Below, piece by piece: positions 710 through 60,064 of a stretch of 64,000 nucleotides of DNA. The stretch spans positions 5,311 to 69,310 of the forward strand of contig DASZSY010000003.1 in the NCBI GenBank assembly GCA_035548435.1, written 5' to 3'. Source of the DNA: Candidatus Nanoarchaeia archaeon. Its GTDB lineage: Archaea > Nanobdellota > Nanobdellia > Pacearchaeales > GW2011-AR1. Position 1 is the stretch's first letter. Each line of letters begins with the position of its first letter. The translations under genes and the position numbers were made by a program. Under the pieces are notes generated by a model. The model made no database searches. It was not told where the DNA came from and was given only the letters and a program-made list of their open reading frames with translations.

Positions 710-811
710 AAAAAAGATAACTAATATTCAGTTAAATACTTAACGAATAATTTATCAACCTTTCTAATAGACAACCACAACTTTATTAACGCTATTTAGA
801 CTGATTTTTGT

Positions 812-2179: not shown

Positions 2180-2181
2180 AT

Positions 2182-2673: not shown

Positions 2674-3269
2674 CATCTAAAATACTCTTCCAAGGCGCTG
2701 AAGCAACAATAATAAAGCAGAAAAATACAATTCTCAAACAAAGGATACCAAAATTATACAGGCATCCTGAAATAGACAAGAAGCTCATAACCCAAAGAAC
2801 AAGAAAAGAAATAAAATTACTTGAAAAACTACAGGGCGTGATAAAAGTTCCAAGAGTTATTTCTTTTTCTGAAAATATAATTGCTCTTGAAGAAATAAAA
2901 GGCAAAAGACTATCAGAATGTCTTGATAAATTAGCAAATAAATCAAAAATTGCAAAAGAAATTGGCCTTTCTCTAGCAAAAATGCATAATTTAGGAATAA
3001 TTCATGGAGATTTAACAACTTCAAATATGATATACACAGGTAAAGAAATATATTTCATTGACTTTGGACTTGGCTATGAATCTGATAGCATTGAAGACAA
3101 AGCAGTTGACCTTCACGTCTTAAAAGAAGCATTAAATGCAAAACATCCAGCTATTTCACAATCTTTCTTCAAGTCAATTCTTTACTCTTACAAATCAAAA
3201 GATAGCGTTAAAGTTTTAGAAAGATTCGACATAGTAGAAAAACGCGGAAGATACAAAGCACAATATTAA
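2670..3269 (+). CDS. bud32: KEOPS complex kinase Bud32 (RIO-type)
   Basis: QGAEATII, RIPKLYRHPEIDKKL...RTRKE and catalytic HGDLTTSNMIY...FIDFG motifs typical of archaeal Bud32. Confidence 0.8.
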   Translation: MTSKILFQGAEATIIKQKNTILKQRIPKLYRHPEIDKKLITQRTRKEIKLLEKLQGVIKVPRVISFSENIIALEEIKGKRLSECLDKLANKSKIAKEIGLSLAKMHNLGIIHGDLTTSNMIYTGKEIYFIDFGLGYESDSIEDKAVDLHVLKEALNAKHPAISQSFFKSILYSYKSKDSVKVLERFDIVEKRGRYKAQY

Positions 3270-3293
3270 AAACTCAACGAACTTGCATTTGAT

Positions 3294-3602
3294 ATGCTAA
3301 AAAGAATAACAAAATTCAGAGGATTTTCAGTAACAAAAAGAGAAATTCTAGCAGATGTCTTTTTCCTCATAGTTTCATTTTCAATTTCGCTATTGGCAAT
3401 ATATATTTTTGATATCCATTGGAGCTTGTATCCAGGAGAAACCATATTTCCTCCAAGCAAACATGTAGGAATAGAACCCTCAAAGTATTATTTCTTCACA
3501 TTTGCTGGAACCATATTATTCTTCATAATATTAAAATTGATGATGCTTGGAATAAAAGAAGAAGAGAAAGAAATGATTAGTAAAGCACTTAAGAAAAGAT
3601 AG
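3294..3602 (+). CDS. Hypothetical small membrane protein
   Basis: Two predicted TM helices; no motif. Confidence 0.3.
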   Translation: MLKRITKFRGFSVTKREILADVFFLIVSFSISLLAIYIFDIHWSLYPGETIFPPSKHVGIEPSKYYFFTFAGTILFFIILKLMMLGIKEEEKEMISKALKKR

Positions 3603-3657
3603 AACTCACGGTTGGATGACAAAACCTTTTAAACCATCTTTATCCTTGTGTTATCAT

Positions 3658-3730
3658 AGCCCTGTCGTATAGTGGTCAAGTATACGGGCCTTTGGCGCCC
3701 GTGACCCCGGTTCGAATCCGGGCAGGGCTA
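3658..3730 (+). tRNA. tRNA-Gln (anticodon TTG)
   Basis: Cloverleaf folded by hand. Acceptor AGCCCTG/CAGGGCT, with the A1:U72 pair characteristic of archaeal tRNA-Gln. Anticodon stem CGGGC/GCCCG with loop CTTTGGC. T-arm CCCGG-TTCGAAT-CCGGG. Discriminator A. Confidence 0.85.
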
Positions 3731-3763
3731 TTAATATAAAAGCAAATAAATTCTGTATAGAAT

Positions 3764-4588
3764 ATGATAAAAAAGCACTTCAAAAAACAAGAAATATCTA
3801 TAAAAAAGCAATTTGAAAGTAGAAGAAAACTACTTATCCCATTCATAGAGAAATATAATGCCCCAGTAATTGTCCATTCAATTCATGATAAGAAAATATT
3901 CCATAAAATAATTACAGAAGGAAAAATAAAAATTCCTAGCAATCACAACACTCCCAGAAAAACACCATATATTGAGCAATTTTTAGATATTGATAATTGT
4001 ATATACTATAGTTTAGGATTTGTTTACTTTTCTTCATATGGGTGGAAATACAGCCTAATATTCAACCTAGACCAATTAAAAGAAATAGAGTATTACAACA
4101 ATTCTCTTAATTTTAAAGCAGCAAGAGCAGTTGTTGACTACTGGCACGATAATGATAAGCAATATTTAGACAAATTAGAAAAAGAAAATGAAACAACAAA
4201 GGCCGTTTTCAACAGATACTATAATGAACCATTTAACGGCAAGCTTAGATGCATCCTAGAATTTTGGAAAATAGAAAAAGAACTATTTGATTATATTAAC
4301 AATTATCCTCACAAAGATAAGATTATGACTTTGATTAAAGATACTAATAAGAAATTCTTTATAGAATATCCAAAATCAAAAGAAGATATTTTAGAAAATT
4401 ACACAAAAGAAAAAGCTCCAGAGATGATAAGTAGAAAAGATAACGATTTAACAAAAAACCCTTCTTTTATCGGATTTCACATTCATGGCAAGATAAGTAA
4501 AGACACCTTAAAGATATTGAAAGATAAATATAACGATAAAATAATATTTGACGGAAAAAGAATAAAAAAGATATCTGAAATAAAATGA
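3764..4588 (+). CDS. Hypothetical Lys-rich protein
   Basis: 274-aa ORF, no recognised motif. Confidence 0.3.
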   Translation: MIKKHFKKQEISIKKQFESRRKLLIPFIEKYNAPVIVHSIHDKKIFHKIITEGKIKIPSNHNTPRKTPYIEQFLDIDNCIYYSLGFVYFSSYGWKYSLIFNLDQLKEIEYYNNSLNFKAARAVVDYWHDNDKQYLDKLEKENETTKAVFNRYYNEPFNGKLRCILEFWKIEKELFDYINNYPHKDKIMTLIKDTNKKFFIEYPKSKEDILENYTKEKAPEMISRKDNDLTKNPSFIGFHIHGKISKDTLKILKDKYNDKIIFDGKRIKKISEIK

Positions 4589-40136: not shown

Positions 40137-40772
40137 GTGCCTCTAGACATATTTAGAAAAGCAATAGAAAAAAAGCCAGAAAAAACAAAAATAATTGTTG
40201 ATTTCAGAGAGAAGAACTCTCTTGTTCCCTCAGAACTTGTCAACCTTGATTGTCATATTGATTTCAAGCAATTAGAAGTTGGAGATTACATTTCAGGTCA
40301 ATATATTATAGAAAGAAAAACCATGCAGGATTTGCAAGCATCCCTGATTTCCAAAAGAATATTTTCTCAAATTCAGTCTTTGAAATTGCAAAAAAATCCA
40401 ATTTTAATAATAGAAAATAAAGAAGAATGGAAATTAAATAAAAATGCATTTTATGGGCTTGTATTATTTATAGTAAAAACAAATATTCCTTTAATATTTT
40501 CAAATAATCCTAAAGAAACTGCTAAGTATATCAAATTATTTTCAACTGAAAAAAAGCAAAAAGAATTTTCCTATAGATTCAATAAAAAAGCAGGTTCAAA
40601 AGAAGATATTGCAAAATATGTTTTAGAAGGCTTCCCAGGTATAGGCAGGGCAACTTCAGAGAAATTGCTTAAAAAATTTGGAAACCTGAAAAATATATTT
40701 CTAGCTTCAGAAGAAGAGCTACAAGAAGTTTTAGGTAAAAAAGCTCTTGAATTCAAGAAAATTATAGATTAG
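40137..40772 (+). CDS. xpf: XPF/ERCC4-type nuclease with C-terminal HhH2
   Basis: GDYISGQYIIERKTMQDL (ERK nuclease motif) and EGFPGIGRATSEKLLKKFG (HhH). Confidence 0.75.
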   Translation: MPLDIFRKAIEKKPEKTKIIVDFREKNSLVPSELVNLDCHIDFKQLEVGDYISGQYIIERKTMQDLQASLISKRIFSQIQSLKLQKNPILIIENKEEWKLNKNAFYGLVLFIVKTNIPLIFSNNPKETAKYIKLFSTEKKQKEFSYRFNKKAGSKEDIAKYVLEGFPGIGRATSEKLLKKFGNLKNIFLASEEELQEVLGKKALEFKKIID

Positions 40773-41737
40773 CTAGCAACCTTATCTACATTCTTGTAAA
40801 CTATGCTTGAGATTTTAGACATTACTCTATCTGCCTCAAACTCATCTGCCCCAGTACTCATTATACATAAGATATATGGTTTTACAGGATGATATATAAT
40901 TCCACAATCGTGATAATGATTTATCCCCTCTGAATAAAGATATCCTACTTTATGTGAAACTGGAACTTCTTTCGGAACTCCAGCTGGAAGTTGAGTGTTA
41001 TAATCTGTTTCAGACATTATTGATAAAGCAAGTTCAGAGAAAGTTCTTCTTAAATATGCTGAGTAGTATAATGATCTTAAAATATTACTATACTGTTTAG
41101 GCCCTAGGTAGCTTATATGGTCTCCATCTATAGGTAGACCCATTGCAAGTCTTGCTTCAAGAATATCTTCTGTAGTTAAAAAGTTGGTTTGAAGAACTCT
41201 TAAAGCAGTATTATCAGATTCCTTAATTAAATATTCCAGCAATTCTTTTATTGTTAAAGTGTATCCTGCTCCTTTCTGAGCTAAAGTCCCAGACATAAAG
41301 TTTAGGTCATCCTGTGTTAAGGTGACTTTTTGCTCTAAACTTAATTCTCCTTTTTCAACTCTTTTAAGAATTGCAACCATTACTGGTACTTTCAATAAAC
41401 TAGCTGAAATGAATTCTTCTTTTTCATTTAGTCCAATCCATGCCCCTGTCTTCAAATCCTCAAAATATAGCCCATACTCTCCTTGCAAGTTTGAATTATT
41501 CATAAATTCAATTAAATCAGTTCTCATATCTTGGAATCCAACAGAATATTGATTTTGTACCTCAAGAAAATCCTCTGTTTCCATCCAAGCAATATCTGGA
41601 GAAATATGTGCAAACTTAGGAGTATACTTCACAGTATAATAATGAGAAATATAAAAGTTTAGCCCAATGGAAATTAAGAGTGAAACAAAGACTGCTGCAA
41701 GTAGTTTGTTATTCTTTAAAGTCTCTTTAATTTGCAT
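40769..41737 (-). CDS. Class A beta-lactamase-like serine hydrolase (membrane-anchored)
   Basis: SxxK (ASLLK), SDN (ESDNTA) and K[ST]G-like (HKVGY) motifs; N-terminal TM helix. Confidence 0.5.
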   Translation of the reverse strand: MQIKETLKNNKLLAAVFVSLLISIGLNFYISHYYTVKYTPKFAHISPDIAWMETEDFLEVQNQYSVGFQDMRTDLIEFMNNSNLQGEYGLYFEDLKTGAWIGLNEKEEFISASLLKVPVMVAILKRVEKGELSLEQKVTLTQDDLNFMSGTLAQKGAGYTLTIKELLEYLIKESDNTALRVLQTNFLTTEDILEARLAMGLPIDGDHISYLGPKQYSNILRSLYYSAYLRRTFSELALSIMSETDYNTQLPAGVPKEVPVSHKVGYLYSEGINHYHDCGIIYHPVKPYILCIMSTGADEFEADRVMSKISSIVYKNVDKVAS

Positions 41738-45409: not shown

Positions 45410-45455
45410 ACTCTAGAAGAGAAAAACATTAATTTAAAGGTTCCTATATAAAAAG

Positions 45456-46984: not shown

Positions 46985-47461
46985 GTGAGAGAGGTGCATA
47001 AAGGAATATTTCCTGAAGTTCCACTATCAGATGGAAACTTTCATTCTAGAGCTTTAACCGTACTTGAAACAAATCCTTCCTTGTTTGGCGAAAGAAAAGA
47101 TACTTGCATAACAATAAATCGCGAGCCTGAAAGAAAAGACAGAAGTTTAACTTACCAAGAAAGTGTAGACTTAATTTTTATTTATGATAGACTTAAGAGA
47201 AGATCACAAAGATATGGAGTTGCAATTGAATTAAAAACAATTGAAAGAGGAGAATTAAGTTTAAGAGATAGAGCTAAAGCAGAAAGTCAATTATTTAATG
47301 GAATACGATATATATCCTCGAGATATGATAGTGTTGCACATACACCATATGGAATACTTGTAACAGTATCTCGTGAAGGAGTTTATGAGTGGGAAAGGAT
47401 ATATGCAGATGAGTTAAGATGGCGTTGGGAATTTAATCAAGAAATTAAAAGAAAACGTTAA
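46985..47461 (+). CDS. Hypothetical protein
   Basis: 158 aa, Arg/Glu-rich, no motif. Confidence 0.3.
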   Translation: MREVHKGIFPEVPLSDGNFHSRALTVLETNPSLFGERKDTCITINREPERKDRSLTYQESVDLIFIYDRLKRRSQRYGVAIELKTIERGELSLRDRAKAESQLFNGIRYISSRYDSVAHTPYGILVTVSREGVYEWERIYADELRWRWEFNQEIKRKR

Positions 47462-50400
47462 AACCACTTATTGAGCCCTTCCTGAGTTTCCTTATCTTTT
47501 CCAAATATACTTTCTATATATGATTGAGTTAATTCTAAACTTTCAAGAAGGTAAGGACTCACATTATAATTTCTTGCGAGTGCGAGTGCAGGTTCCATAT
47601 ACTTCAAAATACTTCCTTCAGAAATAGTAAATATTATTTTACTTCCACATGAAGTGCATTTTCCAACCAATGGGGGCCTTCTATATTTAGAGTTACAAGT
47701 AACGCATCTAAATCCTTGTTGAGAGAATTTTCTTAGGTTTCCTCTTGTATCTCTTATGAAGTGTCTTTCAATTATTAATCTTGCAGCATCGCTTGCATCA
47801 ACTGCTCTTATCTTTTTACATAAATGCATCATTCCATCTACCTTCTCCTGCATTGTTGGTAATGTTTTATAACTTGAACATAAAGCTCCTTTGTTTAAAT
47901 CAGAAGTATCGTGTGTGAAATTTAACTCTGTAAACTCTTTGTTTCCTCCAAGTCTATTCTTTACCTGTTCCATCTTAACTTCAGAAGGATGTTTTTTTTC
48001 TTTTGCCGCTGCATAAAGTTCATATGGAACTTCTTTTGTAACATCTAAGTCGAAAATCATATCATCAACTTCGTTTGCCCTTATTCTCATATTAAGAACA
48101 AGTGGCGCGTCTTGAGTTCCTCCCCTATGAGATGGAATAAACTTCCTTGAAAAATTCAAAAGTAAGTCCATAAGCATCATAACTGCTGCCTCGTCTCCGT
48201 CACAATCTCTTCTCATTGCCGCGTGAATATATGGACTTGCCAAAAGTGCTTGTATCTTTGAAAATCCAACAAGTCTTCCAACTGCCACTGCAGAAGTGTG
48301 TGGAGACATACAACCAAAAAGAGAACCTACAAGATCTTCTCTCTTTTTTGCATTGAAGTAGGTGTTTGTATTATATATTTTAACAAGTTCTTCATCTATG
48401 AATCTTCCAACGCTTAAGAAAACATCATCTGCTCTTTCATCAGGAGTTTCTGGACAGGCAGGCAATATAATATCATGTGGAAAAAGCTCAAGTATTTGAT
48501 TATCTGTTTTCAATTCTTCTCCATATATATCTTTTTCATAACCTAAAGAAACAAGTTTTGCAACTGAGGTTCCAACTTCTGCAGGTCTAAAATGAGTTAT
48601 AGGCATTTCAGTCATGTCATATCTTATAGTTCCGTCTTTGTTTACGTGAAGTCCGTGCTTTGCTCTTAGTAATCCCTTTGCAAGATGTTCACATACGTGT
48701 TCACTGTTAGAAGTTCCTTTCACTCCCTTAACAACACTTGGAACCTCATCATTTCTCATTCCAATTAATTTTCTAGCAGAATCAAAATAAGATTTTATTT
48801 CAATAGACCTTTCTGCTTCTCTTCCATAGCTATTTTCTTGCTTTTCAACTTCTTCAAGTTTACAATAATTCCCGCAAGTTTCACATTTTCTATATATGCT
48901 TTCTCTTTTACATGTATTACAGAAATAATTTGGAAAGTCTGCTCTTACTATTCCATTTTCAACTGCAGTTTGCACACTTCTCATTCTTCCACCTTCTTCT
49001 CCAACAGGGAAAAGAACGTGTGGACTTCCAATTAACTTTCTAAGCTTTGCTTTTTCAGGACGACCCATTCTTGCTCCAATAAAAGTTCCACTCTTGTCTG
49101 CAATCTTTACAGCACATAATTTAGAAATAATTTCTAGTGGCAACTTATCAGATTCTTTCTTTATTTCAAGTGAAATCCTATCAACTCCCTGATCTAAAGG
49201 CTCATGCATTGATAACCCTAAATTAAATAATAGTGCTTCAGAATATGGTTGTTTTATCAAAACATCTTCCAAAGCCACGTCATGTTCACAACCAAGCAGT
49301 TCTAAAGCTCTTTTACCCTGAGCAAATCTTTCTCTATGTAACTTAGAATATGGTAAAGCAAAAACTCCATTTCTTATTATTCCGTGTGCAATCCAGTCAA
49401 TCAAACCAAGAAGCTGCTCTGTAGAAATCTCTTTCCAAAAGAAAGAATATTTTGGATGGAGGGGAATGTCATACTTTTGAGAAATCTCAACTGCCTCAGA
49501 AAAAGAAATATTTTTATTTGCCTCTCCCCCTGCTTTTTTCAAATCCACTGCCCAATATTCTTCAACATATCCTGCTTTTTCTAAACCGTGGTTTCTATTT
49601 ATAAAATCACCAAATGGAACTAAAATATCTCCAAGGTAAACTATTTCTTTAATTCTTGGCTGAAGTTTAACAGCTTCATCATAATCATTTACAAATTTTA
49701 AACTTCCATCATCAAGAATAACTATAGGTCCATCAATAGTATCACATGAAGCCACAGTACATCCTTTGGTAGGTTTCTCAATTTTAAGTTGTGTTCCAAC
49801 TGCAATAAAACCATTTGTTATAGCCATTGTTGCTGGATGAACTGCCAGCGTAGAATATCCTGTTGTTCTACATCTTCCATATCTTAGTCTAAATCCTCCC
49901 GACTGTGAAGGGTGTGAAAATATAGGTCTCCCTCCTACAATGTCTTGAATATATGTAGCTCCCCCTCTTGAAGCATCAGACTTCTTTCCTTCTTTTATTT
50001 TCTTTTGAAGTTTTACAAATTCCTCAAGCCAAGTCCAATCAGAAAGTTTAAACCCTTGTTGTTTTAGTTTCAAAACTCTTTTCAAACATTTAGGAGCTTT
50101 CTGTGCCATTCCTTCAGCTCCAACAAGACAAAAACCAGAACGTAAGATGTTTGTTTCAATTCTTGGCAAATCCTTATAGTTGAAAACTTCTCTTTCTTCA
50201 CTAGGGTCTCCAGAAAGTTGTATAGGAAGATTTCTAAACATAAAGTCAAGTTCTTGTTCTGAAGGAAGATATTGCAAGTTTGTTATTCTTTCATGATATT
50301 CATAACATTCATGTATTCCTCTTTTAACTTCATCTTCAGTAGGATCATATTTAGCATATCCAAATAGCTCTCTTAAATAATCAACAACCACTAGAGAGAA

Positions 50401-50877
50401 TGCTGCTTCACTTCCTCCTGCAGATCTTATAGGTCCAGAATAATAAGGTGCAAGATAATCTTTTCCATCTGCGGTTTTCTTAACCTTAAGCTGAATAAAT
50501 CCTTCAATAGGTGAAGAAACATATCCTAATGTTAAATAACCTAAAGCAACTCTTATACCTGCCTCTATCGCTTCTAAATGACTTTTGAATTTACAGAATT
50601 TTTCTTTTGCAACTTCTTCTGCAATACTTAAAGCAACTGCAGGGTCTAAAGGACCATATTGTTTTTCAAGTTCATGCACTCTTTCAACTATTCTTTTGTC
50701 ATTTATTTGAGGATAAAGGACACTAACAAGTCCCAAGACTCTTTCAGCTAGAGAGGTTGCAACCGGCACTTCAACACTATCAGAAGGGTCTATTCCTTTC
50801 TTTCTAGCTATATTTGCATGAGCATATGCTTCTCCCACAGACTTTTCAAGTTGTTTGAAATATTGTTCAACCTGCAT
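47458..50877 (-). CDS. polD2: DNA polymerase II (PolD) large subunit DP2
   Basis: 1139 aa; N-terminal region, catalytic core and C-terminal Cys clusters (CNTC...CETC, CVTC...CTSC); no intein-sized insertion. Confidence 0.9.
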   Translation of the reverse strand: MQVEQYFKQLEKSVGEAYAHANIARKKGIDPSDSVEVPVATSLAERVLGLVSVLYPQINDKRIVERVHELEKQYGPLDPAVALSIAEEVAKEKFCKFKSHLEAIEAGIRVALGYLTLGYVSSPIEGFIQLKVKKTADGKDYLAPYYSGPIRSAGGSEAAFSLVVVDYLRELFGYAKYDPTEDEVKRGIHECYEYHERITNLQYLPSEQELDFMFRNLPIQLSGDPSEEREVFNYKDLPRIETNILRSGFCLVGAEGMAQKAPKCLKRVLKLKQQGFKLSDWTWLEEFVKLQKKIKEGKKSDASRGGATYIQDIVGGRPIFSHPSQSGGFRLRYGRCRTTGYSTLAVHPATMAITNGFIAVGTQLKIEKPTKGCTVASCDTIDGPIVILDDGSLKFVNDYDEAVKLQPRIKEIVYLGDILVPFGDFINRNHGLEKAGYVEEYWAVDLKKAGGEANKNISFSEAVEISQKYDIPLHPKYSFFWKEISTEQLLGLIDWIAHGIIRNGVFALPYSKLHRERFAQGKRALELLGCEHDVALEDVLIKQPYSEALLFNLGLSMHEPLDQGVDRISLEIKKESDKLPLEIISKLCAVKIADKSGTFIGARMGRPEKAKLRKLIGSPHVLFPVGEEGGRMRSVQTAVENGIVRADFPNYFCNTCKRESIYRKCETCGNYCKLEEVEKQENSYGREAERSIEIKSYFDSARKLIGMRNDEVPSVVKGVKGTSNSEHVCEHLAKGLLRAKHGLHVNKDGTIRYDMTEMPITHFRPAEVGTSVAKLVSLGYEKDIYGEELKTDNQILELFPHDIILPACPETPDERADDVFLSVGRFIDEELVKIYNTNTYFNAKKREDLVGSLFGCMSPHTSAVAVGRLVGFSKIQALLASPYIHAAMRRDCDGDEAAVMMLMDLLLNFSRKFIPSHRGGTQDAPLVLNMRIRANEVDDMIFDLDVTKEVPYELYAAAKEKKHPSEVKMEQVKNRLGGNKEFTELNFTHDTSDLNKGALCSSYKTLPTMQEKVDGMMHLCKKIRAVDASDAARLIIERHFIRDTRGNLRKFSQQGFRCVTCNSKYRRPPLVGKCTSCGSKIIFTISEGSILKYMEPALALARNYNVSPYLLESLELTQSYIESIFGKDKETQEGLNKWF

Positions 50878-52429
50878 TCTTTATTTCCTCCTCATCTCCA
50901 AAATCAAGAACCTTGAGTTCTCTTGTTTTCAAATTAAGAATGGGTACCTTTGCAGGATCAGGAATATTTCCAACTTTTTCTTCGAAAGGAGTCTGTGCCT
51001 GCCAGCAACTTCCAGTTATAATTAAAACACCATTATAACTTTCTATATCTAGTCTGTGAACTTCTCCTGTACATAGTACATCTGGAACTTCTTGTATAAC
51101 TAAAGAATCACTTTCCTTATTTGGAATATAGGTTACTTCTCCGTGTGTTGGAGCTAAATGTCTTCTTTTAAGCATGTGTCTTACTGCTTTAGCTGGAGTT
51201 CTGTGTGCTTTAATTTCTCGCAGTTCTTGAATTTCATTTATGAAAGCGTGAATACTTGCTCCATGATACATCAAGACCTTAAACTCTTTATCTCCTTCTA
51301 GTATCTTAACAAGACAAGGATTAGTTACTAGAACAAGATTATCAAATCCGTATAGTTCTGGAGCATAATTTTTATCAATTATTGGCTGTGGTTCTGCAAC
51401 TCTTGAAGCGTCGTGCTGCCCTGGACACATGAATATTGTTATGTCTTTAGGAATCCTTCTTATGTAAGATGCAAGCAAAGCATATTGTTCTTTCATACTT
51501 CCAAGTTTCAAAAGTTTTTCTTGTCCAGGGAAAATTCCAACCCCATCAACATTATCTCCTGTAAAGAAAACATATTTTACTTTCTTTGCCAGTTCATCTC
51601 CACTATTTATCCAATTCAAGAAATTATTAAAACTACTTTCAAGATGTCTATCGCTACCTGCGTGAACATCAGATAAGAAGGCTACACAAACCTCTTCATT
51701 AAATTTAACTTTTTCATTAATGAATGAGTCTGGGAAGAAAATGTCGTGAATAAATGTAAGGTCTTTATTTCCAGATGCTCTTACTCCCACAACATCGTCT
51801 AGTTGAAGTTCATTTGCTATAGCAAATAACTCTGCATTGTCTACCTTAACAAGACCATTTATAGTTCCTGTTAAATCTTCAAATTTAATTATAAGATTTT
51901 TATTTTTAGTCATTCTTTTTTCAGTCACCATTCCAATAAAACTAAAGAGCTGTCTATCTGATGAAACCTTGTTTAATGCAATCAAGTTTTTCAGTGCTGG
52001 TCTATTCATAAGAATTCTTTGAAGCATCTGGTATCTAGATCTAAAGTTTCCAACAAAGTCTGCAACTTCAAGCTTTTTATCTGCCTTTGTATTAGCATAA
52101 AATAATCTATAGTTTTGACTGTTTTTCTTTACTATTTCAGGCGTCTGTTGTATTTTTGTTTCTCTTTTAACTTCAATATTTATTCCAAGTTTAACAAAAA
52201 CACTTTCAACAAGACTCTTATCTGTTCCCGGTAGTTTGGAAATAGACTGATGAGATATATTCTTAGTTAGGTTGGATTTAGTTATTATTTTTTGTCCTGC
52301 TGATTGTTCGAGCTGTGCAATTAAATTTTTAGCCTCATTTGTGTCTGCAATATTTGAAACCAAGTCAAATATCTCTTTTTCTAAAAGAATTCCTTTTTCC
52401 CTTAAATAAGAAAGCACCTCGGAGTTCAT
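50867..52429 (-). CDS. polD1: DNA polymerase II (PolD) small subunit DP1
   Basis: Calcineurin-like phosphoesterase motifs FLSDVHAGSD, GDNVD, GQHD; overlaps DP2 by 11 nt. Confidence 0.85.
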   Translation of the reverse strand: MNSEVLSYLREKGILLEKEIFDLVSNIADTNEAKNLIAQLEQSAGQKIITKSNLTKNISHQSISKLPGTDKSLVESVFVKLGINIEVKRETKIQQTPEIVKKNSQNYRLFYANTKADKKLEVADFVGNFRSRYQMLQRILMNRPALKNLIALNKVSSDRQLFSFIGMVTEKRMTKNKNLIIKFEDLTGTINGLVKVDNAELFAIANELQLDDVVGVRASGNKDLTFIHDIFFPDSFINEKVKFNEEVCVAFLSDVHAGSDRHLESSFNNFLNWINSGDELAKKVKYVFFTGDNVDGVGIFPGQEKLLKLGSMKEQYALLASYIRRIPKDITIFMCPGQHDASRVAEPQPIIDKNYAPELYGFDNLVLVTNPCLVKILEGDKEFKVLMYHGASIHAFINEIQELREIKAHRTPAKAVRHMLKRRHLAPTHGEVTYIPNKESDSLVIQEVPDVLCTGEVHRLDIESYNGVLIITGSCWQAQTPFEEKVGNIPDPAKVPILNLKTRELKVLDFGDEEEIKNAG

Positions 52430-53631
52430 AGGTCTATTGCCTTATCAAGTATCTCCTTTGCTTTTGTTTTTATTTGTGGAGAAAGCATGAGTTTTATTTC
52501 TCTTGTTCTTCCCTGCCTTCCCTTACTTATGACTCTCGCATTTATTATTCCAAGCATGTCAAACTCTGCAATTATATCTGAAACTCTTCTCTGAGTTAAA
52601 ACCTCATTTCTAGTTTTTTGACAAAATTCCTGATAAACATTATAAACATCTCCCGTAAATATTTCCTCAACTTCTTTTTTATCATCTAAATTCATTATGG
52701 CCTTTAAAACAAGTTGAAATTGCTTAGGTTCGCTTTCAATTATATCAAGCATTTTATCTCTCTCAATCTTTTGATTAGCGGAATCTATGTGTGTTTCTTC
52801 TATTTTCTTTTTTCCATCTCTTTCAGCTAGTTCTCCTGCAACTCTTAATAAATCTAAAGCTCTTCTAGCATCTCCATGTTCTCTGGCAGCAAACGCAGCA
52901 CATTTAGCAATAACTCCCTCATCTATAGCTCCTTCCTTAAACGCAATCTCTGCTCTTTCTTTTAATATGTCTTGCAGCTGCAGAGCATTATATGGTGAAA
53001 ATACAAGTTCTTCTTCTCCAAGTGAACTTCTTACTCTAGGATCTAGGTTATCCATAAATGTCAAACTGTTACTTATTCCTATAATACTTATTTGAGCATT
53101 TTTAAGTTCAGTATTTAGCCTTGTAAGTGTGTAAATAAAGTTGTCATTTATTTTTTTAACTGCCTGATCTATTTCATCTAAGACAATAAGTATAATCTGT
53201 TTCTTTTTATCAATCATTTCAATAAATCTAGAATATACCTGGTCTGTAGGAAGTCCCGTAGCTGGAACAGTTCCACCCATTTCGTTAATTAATTCAGCTA
53301 AAATTCTATATTCAGTATCAGAAACTTTCTTTAATTTACAATTAATATATGTAAAAACAAGTTCATCTTTGTTCATTTGCTTCATTTTATCAATTAATCT
53401 ATTTCCTACATGCTGAACAGAAAGTGTTTTTCCAGTTCCAGTCTTTCCATAAATGAAAAGATTACTAACTCTTTCTCCTCTTAAAGCAGGAGCAAGAATT
53501 GAAGCAACAGATTCTATTTGATCATCTCTATGAGGTATTGTTTCCGGAGTATAGTTAGACTGAAGAGCAGATTTATTCTTAAATAATCCAGAAGAAGCAA
53601 TTGAATCAAATAATTTATCAATTTTATCCAT
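52426..53631 (-). CDS. cdc6: Orc1/Cdc6 replication initiator
   Basis: AAA+ Walker A GKTGTGKT, Walker B LDEID, C-terminal winged helix; 4-nt overlap with DP1. Confidence 0.9.
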   Translation of the reverse strand: MDKIDKLFDSIASSGLFKNKSALQSNYTPETIPHRDDQIESVASILAPALRGERVSNLFIYGKTGTGKTLSVQHVGNRLIDKMKQMNKDELVFTYINCKLKKVSDTEYRILAELINEMGGTVPATGLPTDQVYSRFIEMIDKKKQIILIVLDEIDQAVKKINDNFIYTLTRLNTELKNAQISIIGISNSLTFMDNLDPRVRSSLGEEELVFSPYNALQLQDILKERAEIAFKEGAIDEGVIAKCAAFAAREHGDARRALDLLRVAGELAERDGKKKIEETHIDSANQKIERDKMLDIIESEPKQFQLVLKAIMNLDDKKEVEEIFTGDVYNVYQEFCQKTRNEVLTQRRVSDIIAEFDMLGIINARVISKGRQGRTREIKLMLSPQIKTKAKEILDKAIDL

Positions 53632-54014
53632 AAATATTTTATATAAAATCTTATTATAAATGTATGTGTGTTTGAGGCATCATTTCCACTGAAAGGTTCT
53701 CTTTTCTCGAATAAAATTAATTATTAAAATAAAAAAATAATGAAAACACAGACACCTCTGTTTCTATTGGAAAATGAAAACTAAAACCTTCCAAGTTAGT
53801 ATTAACACGAACTTATATTACTATATATAATATATATAATATATAATATAAATATTTATAATATAAAATTAAAGAAAAAGAAATTTCAATTTTTCTTTTT
53901 AAATGTTTTTGTTATTTTCCATGTGAAATAATAGGGTGTGGGTGTTTGTAAAAAATATTTATCTATATAATGTAGTAAAGAAACATTTATATATCGCTTT
54001 CATTAAACTACGCT
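53632..54014. other. Predicted chromosomal replication origin (oriC): AT-rich unwinding element flanked by ORB-like dyads
   Basis: 383-bp non-coding region immediately upstream of orc1/cdc6. TTCCACTGAAA (53684-53694) is preceded by GT tract TGTATGTGTGTTTGAGG. TTCCATGTGAAA (53917-53928) is followed by GGGTGTGGGTGTTTG. They flank an almost pure (TA)n tract at 53812-53870. Confidence 0.55.
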
Positions 54015-54311: not shown

Positions 54312-54749
54312 ATGAACCTTATAGGATTTGCTTTTACAAAACTACACGCAGAGAAAGTTGCAGCTATGTCTAAAAAAGTAGCAAAGGTAAATGATATTCA
54401 TATTACAAATGTTGAGAAAGAAGAAGTTCCTATACAAATGAAAACAGATGCCTATAGAATTTCATTTAGATTTGTTTTAACTTACAATGATAAGGATGCT
54501 AAAAAAGAAGCAAAGTTAGGAGAAGTAATTATTGAAGGATATATTATAACCTCTCTTACTGAAAACGAAGGAAAAGAATTCTTTAAGAGCTGGAAAAAGA
54601 AAGAGGTTCCTGAGAGCTTTAGACCTGCAATATTTAGTTTAATAATGAAGAAATGTTCACCAAAGGCAATTGATCTTGAAGACACTATATCTTTACCTTT
54701 CCATGTTCCAATTGTTCCACAGTTAAGATTCAACAATTCTGAAAAATAA
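54312..54749 (+). CDS. Hypothetical protein
   Basis: 145 aa; no motif. Confidence 0.3.
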   Translation: MNLIGFAFTKLHAEKVAAMSKKVAKVNDIHITNVEKEEVPIQMKTDAYRISFRFVLTYNDKDAKKEAKLGEVIIEGYIITSLTENEGKEFFKSWKKKEVPESFRPAIFSLIMKKCSPKAIDLEDTISLPFHVPIVPQLRFNNSEK

Positions 54750-54757
54750 AAGCGTTT

Positions 54758-55471
54758 TTAGTTAATTTCTTTTAATTTACCAAATTCAAAGTTTTCTAAT
54801 TCATTTCCAACAGCAATTACTTTAAACTCTTCAAGTTCTAAAGGCCAAGGTAATTTAGTTAAGTAATCTCTAGGATCCGTGCCTTCATTACTACTTATAA
54901 AACTAGGACAAATAATAAAATTCTTATCTTTATATTTCCCTTCAAGAAAACACTTATACTTCTCAGATTTTACTCCATCTCTTAGAACTATAGCGGGATG
55001 TAAATGCCCTATAACTATTGTTTTTATTTTTTTATCTTTAATTAAGTCAAAATCCCTATCTCCGTGTAAAAACGCAATTTCTTCAGACAAATAATAATCT
55101 TTAATTTCTAAATTATCTTTTTTAGGTAAATAATTTATTAAAACATCATGGTTTCCCTTTGTAATTATAAGTTTTTCAGTTCTTTTTTCTAATTTTTCTA
55201 TTATTTTTTCAAATTGCTGCCTTTCTTCTTTTAATATAGAACCAAAAGTGTGTTTTATATCTCCTAAAAGAACAATTTCATTAAATTTATCTTTAAATTC
55301 AAATAACTCATCAAAAGACTTCTCAACTTCTTCAAAAATATACCTATTAATAAAAATTCCTGCCTGATTAAGTGCAGATTCGAACCCTAAATGAAGATCT
55401 CCTACAACTAGTATTTCCTTTTCTTTTTGTTTAATGATAAGAAACTTTCCTTTATACGTTATTTTGTTCAT
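54758..55471 (-). CDS. Metallophosphoesterase (Lhr-associated MPE-like nuclease)
   Basis: VVGDLHLGFE, GDIKH, GNHD, GHLH motifs; overlaps the 3' end of the Lhr gene by 20 nt. Confidence 0.7.
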   Translation of the reverse strand: MNKITYKGKFLIIKQKEKEILVVGDLHLGFESALNQAGIFINRYIFEEVEKSFDELFEFKDKFNEIVLLGDIKHTFGSILKEERQQFEKIIEKLEKRTEKLIITKGNHDVLINYLPKKDNLEIKDYYLSEEIAFLHGDRDFDLIKDKKIKTIVIGHLHPAIVLRDGVKSEKYKCFLEGKYKDKNFIICPSFISSNEGTDPRDYLTKLPWPLELEEFKVIAVGNELENFEFGKLKEIN

Positions 55472-58052
55472 TTTTTTCTCCTATTGCCTTAAGATGCAAT
55501 TGATGCATTCTTTTTAGGAAAGCAACCCTATCTTCTATCTTAATTAAATCACTCTTTCCATGCATCCAAACCCCAAGTCCGAAAGGAGAAACTATGGGTG
55601 TTTTAATCTGCTTTATCTTTATTCTTCCATCTTCTATTGCAGCAAGAACTTTTGTTGCATTCTTTAAATCCATAAGATCTTCTAGTACCTCTCTTCTTGC
55701 TTCTTGTAATATTGGGAAGGAATCACCTATTTTTCTTACAGCCGCAAAAAGAAACTCGGAATGAACTTGCTGCTTTCCTACACTCTTACTCCTACCCTTA
55801 TAACTTCGAAGTATCATTAAACTTCTTCCAGCACAGTGTCTAAATCTTCTTTTCAAAACATCTGTTTTTTCTAAAGCTTCTTTTATTATGAGTTTCAAGT
55901 CTTTACTTTTGACAAAATCAAGTATTTTCTTATCTTCCAAATGTTCTGCAGAGATATAAAATCCATTATCGTTTATTCCAAGCTCAACGTCTCTATGTTT
56001 AAGTCTTGCAGCTGCATATGCATATGCTCTAGAAAGAACGTCATTAACCCTTCTTCCATATAAGCTATGAAAAACCATAACTTCCTTCAAATCTTTGAAT
56101 TTCTCAACAACCAGTGTTTTTTCATCAGGCACAGCAGCAAAATCTCTCTGGTTTTTGAAATAGTTATATATTTCTTCAGCCACATACTTCTTGCAATATG
56201 TGTATTTTTCAATAAATTCAACACAATCTTTCTTATTGTCTAGTCTTTCCTTAACAAGTGCCCTAAATTTACCAATTGCACATGCAACATCAAAATGTAA
56301 GGGCAACATTTCACTTGCCCATGAAGGAATTGTAGGGTTTCTAGATACATCTGCCTTAACAAAAGCTTTCATCCCTCTTGTATATAGAAATTGATACTTT
56401 TTTCCTCCAAGAACAAATACATCTCCTCTTTTCATTCTTTCAACAAAACTCTCATCTACCTGTCCTACAATTGCCCCAGTTCTTTCTGCATCATTTACAA
56501 CTACTGAAATAAAGCTTTCATCAGGTATAGATCCTACATTTGTAGAGTAAATAACTTTAGCAAGCATTCCTCTTTTCCCAATCTGTTGTTTTTCTAAATC
56601 ATACCATATTTTAGCATAAACGTGTCTATGTTCAAGGGCATATTCTCCTGCTAGATAACTAAGAACGCCCATAAAATCTTCATCACTTAAGGTAGAGTAA
56701 CAGTAAGCCCTTCTTATACAATCTTTCATTTCCTGAACTCCCCAAACCTTTGTTATTGCCATACCATATATCTGCTGAGCAAGAACATCTAGCGCATTTC
56801 TAGGTATCTGAATTCTATCTATTTGTTTTTCAACCATTGCTTTCATTAAAATAGCACATTCAACAAGATCATCTCTATCCAAAACAATAAACTTTCCCTT
56901 TGGATGTTCATGAAGCTGGTGTCCTGCTCTTCCAATTCTTTGCAGGGCCCTAGCTACACCCTTAGGAGACTTAATTAAAATAACAATATCTATGCTTCCT
57001 ATATCTATTCCAAGTTCAAGACTTGTGGAAGAAACAACCACCTTCAGTTCACCCTTTCTAAGTCTTTCCTCAATCATAAACCTCTGCTCTTTACTCATAG
57101 AGCTATGGTGTGCCCCGATAAATCCAGTGTACTTTCCAGGATATCTTGTTTCCAGGTGATGTATTATTCTTTCTGTAGCGTTTCTAGTATTTGTGAAAAT
57201 AAGGGTTGTTCTATTTGCGCTTATAATCTCATCAAGCATCTTGTAAAGTTTTGTTTGACTGTCTGTACTTTCAGATTCAAGAATGTCATCTCCAGGGAAA
57301 TCAAGGTCTATTTCAATACTTTTTACAAGTTTCACATCAGCAATCAAGCAATCTCTCTGCTCTCCAACAAGGAATTTAGCAACTTCCTCTAAAGGGAATA
57401 TTGTTGCACTAAGTCCAATACGTACAGGGTCAATTAAACTCATGTGTGCTATTCTTTCCATTGTTAAATTAAGGTGAACTCCTCTTTTGTTTGTCATTGC
57501 GTGTATCTCATCTATGATTATGAATTCGAGTGCAGTCATTTTTTGAGAAAATTTGCCTGTAGTGATAACTATAGCTAAACTTTCAGGTGTTGTAACAAAT
57601 ATATGGGGGCATTTCTTAGCCATTTTACTTCTTTCATATGCAGTTGTGTCTCCAGTTCGTAGACCGACTCTAATTTCTTGCATCTGCAGTCCCTTTTTCT
57701 TTGCAAGTTCTTGCATTTCTTCCAAGGGGCGTTGCAAATTAACATAAATATCATTACTTAGTGCCTTTAGCGGGCTACAATATACTGCATATATCTTATC
57801 CTCAAGCTCTTTTTTCAGTGCAAGCCCCACAATATAATTTAAAATTCCTAAAAATGCAGATAAAGTTTTGGTTCCTCCAGTAGGTGCACTTATAAGTATA
57901 TTTTTTCTTTCGTATATATTCTTTACAGCATGTCTTTGTGTTAGTGAGAAGTCCTCAAATCTTGAAAAAAACCATTCTTTAACAAGAGGATGTAATGTTT
58001 CCTCTACTTCTTTCTTGCTAAATTCTTTTGTTTGAGTTATTTGTCCCATCAT
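55452..58052 (-). CDS. lhr: Lhr-like SF2 helicase
   Basis: Walker A APTGGTKT, DEIH box IIDEIHAM, motif VI QRIGRAGH; 866 aa including the Lhr-core C-terminal region. Confidence 0.8.
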   Translation of the reverse strand: MMGQITQTKEFSKKEVEETLHPLVKEWFFSRFEDFSLTQRHAVKNIYERKNILISAPTGGTKTLSAFLGILNYIVGLALKKELEDKIYAVYCSPLKALSNDIYVNLQRPLEEMQELAKKKGLQMQEIRVGLRTGDTTAYERSKMAKKCPHIFVTTPESLAIVITTGKFSQKMTALEFIIIDEIHAMTNKRGVHLNLTMERIAHMSLIDPVRIGLSATIFPLEEVAKFLVGEQRDCLIADVKLVKSIEIDLDFPGDDILESESTDSQTKLYKMLDEIISANRTTLIFTNTRNATERIIHHLETRYPGKYTGFIGAHHSSMSKEQRFMIEERLRKGELKVVVSSTSLELGIDIGSIDIVILIKSPKGVARALQRIGRAGHQLHEHPKGKFIVLDRDDLVECAILMKAMVEKQIDRIQIPRNALDVLAQQIYGMAITKVWGVQEMKDCIRRAYCYSTLSDEDFMGVLSYLAGEYALEHRHVYAKIWYDLEKQQIGKRGMLAKVIYSTNVGSIPDESFISVVVNDAERTGAIVGQVDESFVERMKRGDVFVLGGKKYQFLYTRGMKAFVKADVSRNPTIPSWASEMLPLHFDVACAIGKFRALVKERLDNKKDCVEFIEKYTYCKKYVAEEIYNYFKNQRDFAAVPDEKTLVVEKFKDLKEVMVFHSLYGRRVNDVLSRAYAYAAARLKHRDVELGINDNGFYISAEHLEDKKILDFVKSKDLKLIIKEALEKTDVLKRRFRHCAGRSLMILRSYKGRSKSVGKQQVHSEFLFAAVRKIGDSFPILQEARREVLEDLMDLKNATKVLAAIEDGRIKIKQIKTPIVSPFGLGVWMHGKSDLIKIEDRVAFLKRMHQLHLKAIGEKNEQNNV

Positions 58053-58163
58053 TTGTCTTCAAATCTTTGGTATTTAACTGTTTATACCAACTTTAAAGTG
58101 AATTATTTTTTGTAGGAGAAATGAAAACCGAATAACTTATAAGCACAGCTAACAAAAACAAGT

Positions 58164-58475
58164 ATGCCTAGACTATCAGAAAAGAAAAAAACAAAAATAT
58201 CAGAACAAATTCTGTATTATTTGTTCAGTTGCGCTCCAGAGTCTAAATTTACTTCAGAGATAGCAGAAGAGATAGTACGAGACGAAGAATTTGTTAAAGA
58301 TTTATTGAAAAAACTCTTTGAAAAGAAGCTAGTGGTATTAGTTTCTAAGAATTCTTCTGGCGTAGAATATCAAAAACGTCAACGCTGGCGTCTTTCAAAC
58401 CAAGCATATGAAGTGTATGTCAGTAGACAACAGTCTTTAGTTAAAAGACAGCCTTCTTTTCAACAAGATCTTTAA
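58164..58475 (+). CDS. Small winged-helix-like protein
   Basis: EQILYYLFSCAPESKFTSEIAEEIV...LVVLV resembles a wHTH. Confidence 0.35.
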   Translation: MPRLSEKKKTKISEQILYYLFSCAPESKFTSEIAEEIVRDEEFVKDLLKKLFEKKLVVLVSKNSSGVEYQKRQRWRLSNQAYEVYVSRQQSLVKRQPSFQQDL

Positions 58476-58564: not shown

Positions 58565-59209
58565 ATGGATCCAATCAAAGAGGCATTCACAAAAGTTAGA
58601 CAAGATATTTCAGATTTAAAGACTTCCATCTCATTTTTAATGCAAGAAATAGAAGATATTAAACGAACTCTTAATGAACAAAAAAACACAACAATTAAGC
58701 CTATTCTAACCTCCCAAATAAGTGAAATTCCAACAAACCAACAAACAGATTCTGATAAAGTAGCTTTATACGGTCTAAAAAGCCCAAATACTCAATTTTC
58801 CAGTGGAAATAGGGGGGTTCCAACAAACAGACAGACAAACCAACAAACAGACCAACAGATTCCTAGCACGTTGGCATCCACTGTACAGGCCGTTGATTCA
58901 CTGAAATTAAGCTTAAAAAACACTTTTTTGAGCCTTACAAAGCAAGAAAGAGAAGTATTTTTGATGCTTTATGATCTCGAAGAACGAGGTTTTACCGTCG
59001 ATTATCCTTTGCTGGCGCAAAAACTTAATCTAACAGAAAGTTCAATAAGAGATTATGTTCTTAAGATGATTCGTAAAGGTGTTCCAATACAAAAACTTAA
59101 GGAAAACAACAAAAAAGTCTTCTTATCCGTTGCTCCAGAGCTTAAAAAAATGGCTAATTTAGCTTCATTTCAATCTTTATACTCTATAAAACAGGAGTTC
59201 ATCGGTTAA
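58565..59209 (+). CDS. Coiled-coil + low-complexity (PTNQQTD repeats) + C-terminal wHTH protein
   Basis: C-terminus TKQEREVFLMLYDLEERGFTVDYPLLAQKLNLTESSIRDYVLKMIRKGV aligns with the C-terminus of 59429..60064. Confidence 0.4.
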   Translation: MDPIKEAFTKVRQDISDLKTSISFLMQEIEDIKRTLNEQKNTTIKPILTSQISEIPTNQQTDSDKVALYGLKSPNTQFSSGNRGVPTNRQTNQQTDQQIPSTLASTVQAVDSLKLSLKNTFLSLTKQEREVFLMLYDLEERGFTVDYPLLAQKLNLTESSIRDYVLKMIRKGVPIQKLKENNKKVFLSVAPELKKMANLASFQSLYSIKQEFIG

Positions 59210-59428: not shown

Positions 59429-60064
59429 TTATTCATGTTTTTCCTCTGTTTCAGGGGCTTTTTTCTTGCCTCTAACTCTCACTTTTGCGTATTTTGACAG
59501 TTTTTCCTTCATTTCGTCAGGTATAAACACTCTCTTTTTCCCATTTTTCTCTAAAAGCTCCTCAATTAGGCCCTCACTCTTCTGTTTTATCGCATTTATT
59601 TGCCCTCTTACAGTTGATCTCTCTTTCCCGAGAAGAAGTGCTAAATCTTCATAACTCAGCTTCATTTCGCTCTGTAAAAGTGTAAATATTATTAATCTTT
59701 CATTTGAACTTAAACTCTTCAAAAAATCAGAAAAATTGCCTGTTTGAACAGGTGTTTGAACACCTTCTTGAACAGCTTGGACAGCTGTTTGTTTGCCCAA
59801 AACAGCCGAATTTTTCAACAGCTGTTTGTTTTCAGCGTTCATTTCTACCAGATCAATTCCCTCTCTTAGCGAGTCCACCTCTGTTCTAATCGACGATAAA
59901 TCTCTTTTTATTTCAGAAAGTACATCAAACAGCTGTTTGTCGGTCTCATCAAGGTGTTTAATCCACTTTCCAACCTTCTCAATATCTTCCTTAACCAAAG
60001 AAAATGATTTCTTAGTTTCTTCCTCTAATTTTTTATTGTTCTTACCAAATAACCATCTAAACAT
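59429..60064 (-). CDS. Paralogous coiled-coil + QTAVQAVQ low-complexity + wHTH protein
   Basis: SSNERLIIFTLLQSEMKLSYEDLALLLGKERSTVRGQINAIKQKSEGL, homologous to the 58565..59209 C-terminus; convergent arrangement. Confidence 0.4.
   Translation of the reverse strand: MFRWLFGKNNKKLEEETKKSFSLVKEDIEKVGKWIKHLDETDKQLFDVLSEIKRDLSSIRTEVDSLREGIDLVEMNAENKQLLKNSAVLGKQTAVQAVQEGVQTPVQTGNFSDFLKSLSSNERLIIFTLLQSEMKLSYEDLALLLGKERSTVRGQINAIKQKSEGLIEELLEKNGKKRVFIPDEMKEKLSKYAKVRVRGKKKAPETEEKHE

Follow-up and report, generated by a model that had tools for sequence, protein, structure and literature searches.

In a 64,000-nucleotide stretch of DNA from Candidatus Nanoarchaeia archaeon (assembly GCA_035548435.1, contig DASZSY010000003.1, positions 5,311 to 69,310 of the forward strand; hereafter the window), the 3' end of an Lhr-type helicase gene overlaps the 5' end of a metallophosphoesterase (MPE) gene. 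The two genes are probably an archaeal two-gene Lhr-core/MPE nucleic-acid repair module, of the form that combines an aLhr2 helicase with a TIGR00024-type phosphoesterase, in a DPANN (Nanoarchaeia) genome. As such the pair represents an already known type of repair module, with nothing out of the ordinary, and opens no new question. The gene pair and its putative expression signals comprise the following features:

55452 to 58052, minus strand: aLhr2-type Lhr-core helicase gene, 866 aa (open reading frame (ORF), Pfam, NF010338 and tree).
54758 to 55471, minus strand: MPE-clade binuclear metallophosphoesterase gene, 237 aa, predicted Mn-dependent single-stranded DNA (ssDNA) endonuclease (ORF, Pfam Metallophos, TIGR00024, 6nvo/6nvp).
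55452 to 55471, minus strand: overlap, 20 nt shared by the 3' end of Lhr and the 5' end of MPE (Lhr stop codon TAA at 55454-55452, MPE ATG at 55471-55469, read from the sequence).
55478 to 55482, minus strand: Shine-Dalgarno-like AGGAG within the Lhr coding sequence, 6 nt before the MPE ATG (read from the sequence; putative function).
58071 to 58098, minus strand: TATA-like A/T-rich boxes TTTAAAG, TATAAA and TTAAATA, candidate operon promoter (read from the sequence).
54742 to 54751, minus strand: oligo-T tract TTTTATTTTT, candidate archaeal transcription terminator (read from the sequence).

The two ORFs lie in different reading frames across the overlap, the MPE start codon agrees with the N-termini of its homologues, and the public gene calls on contig CAZZNA010000099.1 of GCA_964655315.1 give the identical two genes with the identical overlap. 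The TATA-like boxes sit 19-46 nt 5' of the Lhr ATG, within the 111 bp that separate Lhr from the divergent gene u103, and the TTTTATTTTT tract begins 6 nt past the MPE stop codon. From the overlap, the internal AGGAG and the oligo-T tract behind MPE, Lhr and MPE appear to form one operon. An earlier note on this DNA, made from its letters alone and here called the original prediction, had proposed such a co-transcribed pair, and the arrangement indeed looks like an operon. Its 866-aa Lhr-type helicase with APTGGTKT and DEIH is borne out by ORF, motifs, Pfam and NF010338, its 237-aa phosphoesterase with GDLHLG and GNHD by ORF, motifs and TIGR00024, and its 20-nt overlap by the sequence and the public gene calls. 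Chance ORFs can be discounted for both genes. The archaeal origin of the DNA (window G+C about 33%) was also correctly recognized: genes for Orc1/Cdc6 and for PolD DP1 and DP2 lie nearby, and the identical MPE protein is listed at NCBI as 'metallophosphoesterase [Candidatus Nanoarchaeia archaeon]'.

The Pfam domains of the helicase follow in the order DEAD (residues 38-219, E 5e-26), Helicase_C (270-377, 1e-19), WH_Lhr (404-568, 1e-34) and DEAD_assoc (641-825, 1e-57). They correspond to RecA1, RecA2, the Lhr winged helix and Domain 4 (DEAD_assoc, PF08494), which is the Lhr-core architecture, and the helicase motifs I, II, III and VI are intact (APTGGTKT 56-63, DEIH 181-184, SAT 215-217 and QRIGRAGH 371-378). 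The protein scores 1088 bits with NF010338, above the curated cut-off of 849, and its closest solved relative is the M. smegmatis Lhr-Core (5v9x, E 3e-112). The C-terminal extension of bLhr-HTH, of about 650 aa with HTH_42/winged-helix modules and a glycosylase domain, is absent, the protein stopping at residue 866, 41 residues past Domain 4; the original prediction had asked for a check of this domain, and nothing lies beyond the core. PF06224 had no Pfam match in the helicase. The model for the long, E. coli-type Lhr (NF007284) gave 411 bits, under its cut-off of 1496, and the model for the bacterial ligase-associated helicase bLhr (TIGR04121) gave 525.7 bits, under its cut-off of 850.

In a neighbour-joining (NJ) tree of 850 columns, the Lhr proteins of the window, of other DPANN and of Methanobacterium formed one clade with a bootstrap value of 1.0. 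Its sister was the long Lhr of Legionella and Pantoea (0.735); the ligase-associated Lhr-Core (bLhr) of Phyllobacterium and the Lhr of Halomontanus, each 27% identical to the window Lhr, fell outside. Hajj et al. (2021; PMC8301817) place aLhr2 and bLhr-HTH in one class, find only aLhr2 in Methanobacteriales and identify MTH_1802 as aLhr2. Since the NJ topology matches their published tree, the window helicase is assigned on sequence to aLhr2 (archaeal MCL class 1), an assignment that rests on the Methanobacterium loci and the taxonomic distribution in PMC8301817 rather than on curated references: Methanobacterium Lhr served as the aLhr2 reference only because Methanobacteriales lack aLhr1 according to that paper, and the Halomontanus Lhr is only presumed to be aLhr1. 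In this tree the closer bacterial neighbour of the aLhr2 clade is the long Lhr, and not the ligase-associated Lhr-Core, the partner of MPE in bacteria.

The Lhr gene of one related DPANN locus (L029; 60-4418, plus strand) carries an intein with a LAGLIDADG domain in RecA2 (Pfam Intein_splicing 2.8e-40, LAGLIDADG_3 7e-19), of a kind previously reported for some aLhr2. The Lhr gene of a further locus, L006, may likewise be interrupted, its Lhr match spanning 76-4071.

The MPE protein contains the motifs GDLHLG (24-29), GDIKH (70-74), GNHD (106-109) and GHLHP (155-159). It was matched by TIGR00024 ('SbcD_rel_arch', COG1407) with 122.5 bits, above the cut-off of 115.2, over residues 18-236 of the protein and 15-221 of the 224 model positions; the PdeM/MPE model TIGR04123 came second with 73.8 bits, under its cut-off of 150. 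PdeM of Phyllobacterium shares 25% identity with it (E 1.3e-5). Among 36 homologues, from which conservation and a profile were derived, D25, H27, D71, H74, H108, H136 and H158 are invariant, and N107 and H156 are conserved in at least 90%. All seven metal ligands are kept: D25, H27, D71, N107, H136, H156 and H158 align with Asp33, His35, Asp78, Asn112, His142, His156 and His158 of the Pseudomonas putida MPE (6nvo). In addition, the invariant H74 (of the motif GDxxH) and H108 (of GNHD) align with its His81 and His113. Ghosh et al. (2020; PMC7826289) describe the seven Mn ligands of the P. putida enzyme and report that His81 and His113 are essential for DNA cleavage and dispensable for a generic substrate. 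Precisely those residues to which the bacterial enzyme owes its DNA nuclease activity are thus retained in the archaeal MPE.

When the MPE sequence alone was searched against the PDB with phmmer, nothing significant came up (best SbcD, E 0.16), so that the profile of the 36 homologues was needed to reach the P. putida nuclease MPE. With that profile, 6nvo/6nvp became the best match (E 1.8e-7), with SbcD/Mre11 at 2.1e-4 or worse. An AlphaFold2 model of the MPE (predicted local distance difference test score, pLDDT, 87) led Foldseek to the same entries (6nvp/6nvo, E 3.9e-9, template-modelling (TM) scores 0.57/0.67), Mre11 coming next at 2.3e-6. By sequence profile and modelled fold, the protein is an MPE-clade phosphoesterase rather than an Mre11, and its nearest solved structure is the P. 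putida nuclease MPE; the contrary outcome considered in the original prediction, a grouping with Mre11 or with unrelated phosphoesterases, was not found. By analogy with the bacterial enzyme, a Mn2+-dependent ssDNA endonuclease activity is predicted for it. To our knowledge, no archaeal MPE of this family has been characterized or purified.

The aLhr2 clade membership of the helicase and the scores below cut-off for TIGR04121 and TIGR04123 make the pair an archaeal counterpart, not an orthologue, of the bacterial module. The Lhr-core/MPE repair module named in the original prediction stands in this restricted sense. In the Lhr phylogeny it had called for, the window Lhr joins the Methanobacterium aLhr2 with full bootstrap support, outside the bacterial ligase-associated clade.

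Linkage of the two genes was examined in 80 related loci, obtained by a one-genome-per-species scan with the MPE alignment, in which the window proteins were then located by tblastn. Nearly all of them come from metagenome-assembled genomes (MAGs) labelled Pacearchaeota, Woesearchaeota or Nanoarchaeota, with a few Methanobacterium added. Of the 80 loci, 15 had flanks too short to judge, leaving 65 informative ones. Lhr was found 5' of MPE on the same strand in 48 loci and MPE 5' of Lhr on the same strand in four (three Methanobacterium and one Methanobacteriota MAG), no Lhr lay on the opposite strand, and 13 loci with adequate flanks had no Lhr. Same-strand linkage, within 6 kb of MPE, thus holds for 52 of the 65 informative loci, and the adjacency on which the original prediction depended is conserved. 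In 23 of the 52 linked pairs the genes overlap or lie at most 110 nt apart, and Lhr/MPE overlaps of 4-37 nt recur, by ORF coordinates, in eight loci. A conserved operator was sought in the divergent Lhr/u103 spacers, but these were too variable and shared the TATA-like boxes alone. The pair is also found in distant relatives, whose Lhr is about 50% identical, and in Methanobacterium. In the latter, MPE precedes Lhr on the same strand at a distance of 5-103 nt and Orc1 is not nearby. The Lhr-less loci form several small groups dispersed across the MPE tree. No conserved substitute partner was found in them, the MPE neighbours being only housekeeping genes (AlaX-like, MetK, a CBS-HTH protein), and this, together with their dispersion, suggests a repeated loss of linkage.

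Three papers already report Lhr-core/MPE pairs in archaea, so that the finding is true, not new, and the original prediction overstated how notable the pairing is in an archaeon. PMC8301817 describes a TIGR00024-type phosphoesterase adjoining alhr2 in DPANN genomes, and an MPE adjoining bLhr in 276 of 319 bacterial genomes. Ghosh et al. (PMC7826289) note that the two-gene Lhr-core/MPE cluster occurs alone in many bacteria and archaea, and Buckley et al. (2020; PMC7437997) that MPE adjoins Lhr-Core in many archaea and bacteria. The neighbourhood of aLhr2 with TIGR00024/COG1407/cd07391 (PF1019-like) in PMC8301817 resembles the window in helicase clade, phosphoesterase family and DPANN lineage and shows no essential difference from it; the window MAG lies outside the six DPANN genomes sampled there. 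To that account the window and its relatives add the 20-nt overlap, the origin-proximal gene block described below and the frequency of the pair in the 80 Nanoarchaeia-like loci, that is, numbers for a published qualitative statement, with 52 of 65 informative loci linked and always on the same strand.

The bacterial Lhr-Core/MPE cluster (PMC7826289) shares with the window the order of helicase then phosphoesterase on one strand, as seen in our bacterial comparison locus from Phyllobacterium (L084), as well as the four-domain helicase, the phosphoesterase fold, the seven ligands and the His81/His113 pair. In L084, Lhr is followed by PdeM with a ligase-associated exonuclease alongside, whereas the window has no linked ligase or exonuclease; the ligase of L084 is itself presumed, from a 407-aa ORF that is the longest in an unannotated gap. 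Between the window helicase and the bacterial ligase-associated Lhr-Core the identity is only 27%, and the two belong to separate clades. Relative to the P. putida enzyme, the archaeal MPE has some 20 additional residues and, at its C-terminus, a conserved beta-hairpin region (W209, F230, G231). It does not conserve the bacterial surface residues Lys38, Arg83 and Arg86, and the position of Arg172 is taken by Lys171. The Methanothermobacter thermautotrophicus Lhr MTH_1802 (PMC7437997) can be likened to the window helicase through the Methanobacterium Lhr proteins, which are 48-50% identical to it over the full length of the window protein; there the MPE gene directly precedes Lhr on the same strand, in inverted order relative to the window, and no orc1 is nearby.

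A more distant likeness is offered by the rpa-rpap-rpe operon of Haloferax volcanii (PMC3273820, PMC3376784), in which an Rpe-type phosphoesterase, similar to the MPE relative of Natronorubrum, lies downstream of an ssDNA-binding gene. Here the partner is an RPA-type single-stranded-DNA-binding protein and not a helicase, and rpe is non-essential in Haloferax (PMC3273820, PMC3376784). The haloarchaeal operon is another link of an MPE-type phosphoesterase to proteins that handle ssDNA. A search of the plasmid database PLSDB with the window MPE, in which haloarchaeal aLhr1-MPE pairs were sought, returned three Natronorubrum relatives only, none of them adjoining an Lhr gene. On the Natronorubrum daqingense plasmid NZ_CP019328.1 (L082:2895-6774) the operon is annotated as single-stranded-DNA-binding protein, hypothetical protein and metallophosphoesterase. 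The product of the third gene is distantly related to the window MPE (25% identity, E 5e-16) and is longer, with insertions.

As to how the pair may work, Lhr and MPE would be transcribed as one unit from the A/T-rich promoter 5' of Lhr, and MPE would be translated from its own Shine-Dalgarno-like site within the last Lhr codons, which would keep both proteins in step; overlapping genes would favour stoichiometric synthesis. Lhr, as an ATP-driven 3'-to-5' translocase, would load on ssDNA where forks have stalled or broken, or on RNA:DNA hybrids, and would unwind these structures. MPE, through its binuclear Mn2+ centre, would cleave whatever single strands, tails, bulges or flaps are thereby exposed, and other enzymes would then finish the repair. 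The helicase polarity, the preference for forks or hybrids, the Mn-dependent nuclease activity and the cooperation of Lhr with MPE are carried over in this scheme from the literature on related proteins. Archaeal Lhr acts on forks, which it unwinds with 3'-5' polarity (PMC7437997), Tbar-aLhr2 is described as a DNA/RNA helicase (PMC8301817), and the P. putida MPE is a Mn-dependent ssDNA endonuclease that cuts ssDNA, tails, bulges and sites opposite nicks (PMC7826289). By this analogy the role of the pair is most likely the processing of stalled or damaged replication or repair intermediates. That DPANN with small genomes retain the helicase-nuclease pair argues for a basic maintenance job. In practical terms, the pair points to an easy biochemical target.

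The genes lie close to a predicted origin of replication, in a block of replication genes with the following features:

52426 to 53631, minus strand: Orc1/Cdc6 gene (Pfam).
50867 to 52429, minus strand: PolD DP1 gene (Pfam).
47458 to 50877, minus strand: PolD DP2 gene (Pfam).
53632 to 54014: predicted replication origin, a 383-bp spacer between orc1/cdc6 and a PRC-barrel gene.
53761 to 53773, minus strand: origin recognition box (ORB)-like element, TTTCCAnnnGAAA then a G/T-rich string.
53916 to 53928, plus strand: ORB-like element, TTTCCAnnnGAAA then a G/T-rich string.
53683 to 53695: degenerate third ORB-like copy.

The two origin ORB-like elements are inverted about a highly AT-rich stretch at about 53800-53900. 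The ORB core motif occurs six times in the window against 0.69 expected. Its density in 29 related loci is 2.3 per kb in the equivalent spacer compared to 0.05 per kb elsewhere, an approximately 45-fold enrichment. With these repeats and the enrichment in related spacers, the orc1-adjacent spacer is well supported by sequence as a predicted replication origin. The original prediction had set the pair next to the origin, which fits this picture: between the 3' end of MPE and the AT-rich stretch lie about 0.9 kb and two small plus-strand genes. The block u211-u214-u103-Lhr-MPE-u145-PRC-orc1-DP1 is conserved in the subclade of the window. The order Lhr-MPE-u145-PRC-origin-orc1-DP1 is kept where Lhr is at least about 55% identical to that of the window, and not in more distant DPANN or in Methanobacterium. 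The pair outlives the loss of the origin block and is therefore taken as a functional unit; the origin-side position appears to be a lineage-specific conserved gene order and not part of the module.

Several observations weigh against the assignment to a repair module. The helicase falls outside the bacterial clade that partners MPE, and neither the exonuclease nor the presumed ligase of the bacterial cluster was found in the window or the 80 loci (tblastn with Phyllobacterium queries, E<=1e-3), nor was a ligase or exonuclease found by Pfam among the window neighbours, which makes this the two-gene version of the module. Linkage is not universal, 13 of the 65 informative loci having no Lhr in their flanks, and in 29 of the 52 linked loci 0.26-4.2 kb separate Lhr and MPE. 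Where identified, the inserted genes are unrelated (a phosphoribosyl pyrophosphate (PRPP) synthetase, a prephenate dehydratase domain protein and a HepT-like toxin), so tight translational coupling is not obligatory. By locus, the insert families are f10 in L017, L030, L031, L034 and L040, f43 in L001 and L019, and f20 in L028, L054 and L071. The substrate assigned to the MPE, whether DNA, RNA or a small phosphodiester, is extrapolated from a bacterial protein that is about 16-17% identical in structural alignment. Finally, PMC8301817 links the Thermococcales aLhr2 to RNA metabolism, placing it in an RNA-metabolism protein network and having it displace RNA from RNA:DNA and RNA:RNA hybrids. 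A role in RNA processing, with aLhr2 unwinding RNA or RNA:DNA duplexes and the phosphoesterase trimming RNA ends or cyclic phosphates, would agree with that, with the lack of a DNA-repair partner such as a ligase or exonuclease nearby and with the hydrolysis of generic phosphodiesters such as bis-p-nitrophenylphosphate by the P. putida MPE (PMC7826289). We consider it unlikely, given that the equivalents of His81 and His113, which the P. putida MPE requires for DNA cleavage and not for the generic substrate, are invariant in the window family, that a preference for DNA forks and a replication phenotype are reported for the M. thermautotrophicus aLhr2 (PMC7437997), that in a large DPANN subclade the Lhr and MPE genes stand together with orc1 and polD in one block, and that the haloarchaeal MPE relative belongs to an ssDNA-binding-protein operon resembling rpa-rpe (PMC3273820).

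The adjacency itself could be meaningless and reflect a gene order frozen in small DPANN genomes. The whole block from u211 to DP1 is conserved, which makes linkage within the window's subclade alone weak evidence, and in many loci Lhr and MPE are separated by unrelated genes. This explanation is nevertheless improbable, with only a small chance of being right: the pair survives the loss of the block in relatives with Lhr about 50% identical, the Methanobacterium pair stands in reverse order on the same strand and still only 5-103 nt apart, opposite-strand arrangements are absent among 52 linked loci, and an analogous pairing exists in bacteria (L084, and the 276 of 319 genomes of PMC8301817). 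It is very improbable that the MPE is an Mre11/SbcD-type double-strand-break nuclease that lies beside the helicase by chance. TIGR00024 does bear the name 'SbcD_rel_arch', and Mre11/SbcD form the second tier of its sequence and fold matches, but the P. putida MPE is ahead of them by about three orders of magnitude both in the profile (1.8e-7 against 2.1e-4) and in the fold search (3.9e-9 against 2.3e-6). Moreover, the window MPE has 237 aa compared to 305-481 residues in the matched chains, which are of the nuclease plus capping domain type, the PDB matches are limited to profile residues 12-115, motif II is GDxxH as in MPE, no Rad50/SbcC family occurs among the conserved neighbours, and no Mre11/SbcD NCBIfam match was obtained at E<=0.01. 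Equally remote is a defence module against viruses or plasmids, made of an Lhr-like helicase as in Dpd or BREX and a nuclease effector. The PADLOC matches of the helicase to DpdJ (E 7e-120), BrxHI (2e-68) and SngC (9e-59) reflect common Lhr ancestry, the NCBIfam DpdJ model giving 49.8 bits against a cut-off of 800, and the weak match of the MPE to the 'anti-phage phosphoesterase' NF053862 (E 3e-5) amounts to 23 bits against a cut-off of 420. None of the five scanned neighbour proteins has a defence match, other Dpd or BREX components were not found, and in dozens of genomes the genes occupy a fixed housekeeping position beside orc1/polD rather than a variable island. An archaeal Lhr-core/MPE repair module hence remains the probable identity of the pair.

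Some neighbouring genes of the conserved block deserve a description of their own. Gene u214 (58565 to 59209, plus strand) contains within its coding sequence an ORB-like element (58794-58830, plus strand), which is about 0.75 kb beyond the Lhr start. The element consists of TTTTCCAGTGGAAATAGGGGGGTTCC followed by ACAG-type repeats that encode TNRQTDRQ, and its consensus is the same as that of the orc1-side origin ORBs. Its codons are fixed at synonymous sites in 21 orthologues (Ser TCC 21/21, Gly GGG 21/21, Gly GGA 20/21, Val GTT 21/21), with TCC making up 6% of the Ser codons in u214 orthologues and the protein sequence around the element poorly conserved. Across the 64-kb window, an extended ORB pattern matched only the two origin ORBs, the u214 site and, poorly, an AT-rich sequence at 45441. 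From its sequence, the u214 element may be an Orc1 binding site, and an ORB-like element inside a coding sequence is a more unusual lead than the gene pair.

Gene u145 (54312 to 54749, plus strand; 145 aa) is convergent with MPE, with 8 nt between the stop codons. It is conserved in the block and has no family match; by tblastn, 45 of the 80 related loci contain a homologue, mostly between the MPE and PRC-barrel genes, and the protein homologue search found only four relatives. The best fold matches of its AlphaFold2 model (pLDDT 69) were SecB and the SecB-like chaperone Rv1957, with E 7e-4 to 6e-3 and TM 0.37-0.49. The assignment of u145 as a SecB-like protein is tentative because only four relatives were found and the model is of moderate confidence. 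The C-terminal domain of the long bacterial Lhr is reported to have a SecB-like fold (PMC10953399); its structure 7lhl was not among the top 50 fold matches of u145.

The order u211, u214, u103, Lhr, MPE is kept in roughly 20 related loci. One could imagine that in a large Pacearchaeota/Woesearchaeota-like subclade Lhr and MPE belong to an origin-proximal replication/repair island, flanked on one side by the origin with its inverted ORBs and on the other by the lone ORB-like element kept at synonymous codon sites in the winged-helix-turn-helix gene u214, in which Orc1 organizes or regulates the fork-rescue pair and u145 acts as a third, stand-alone partner. We regard this as unlikely; if true, the possibly SecB-like u145 would echo the SecB-like fold reported in the C-terminal domain of the long bacterial Lhr. 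The remaining small genes are u103 (58164 to 58475, plus strand), divergent from Lhr over the 111-bp spacer and with a weak EarA-like match, and u211 (59429 to 60064, minus strand), which like u214 gave only weak sub-threshold helix-turn-helix-type Pfam matches. Further away in the window, an ORF of 322 aa (40769 to 41737, minus strand) strongly matches the class-A-type Pfam family 'Beta-lactamase2' with E 6e-42.

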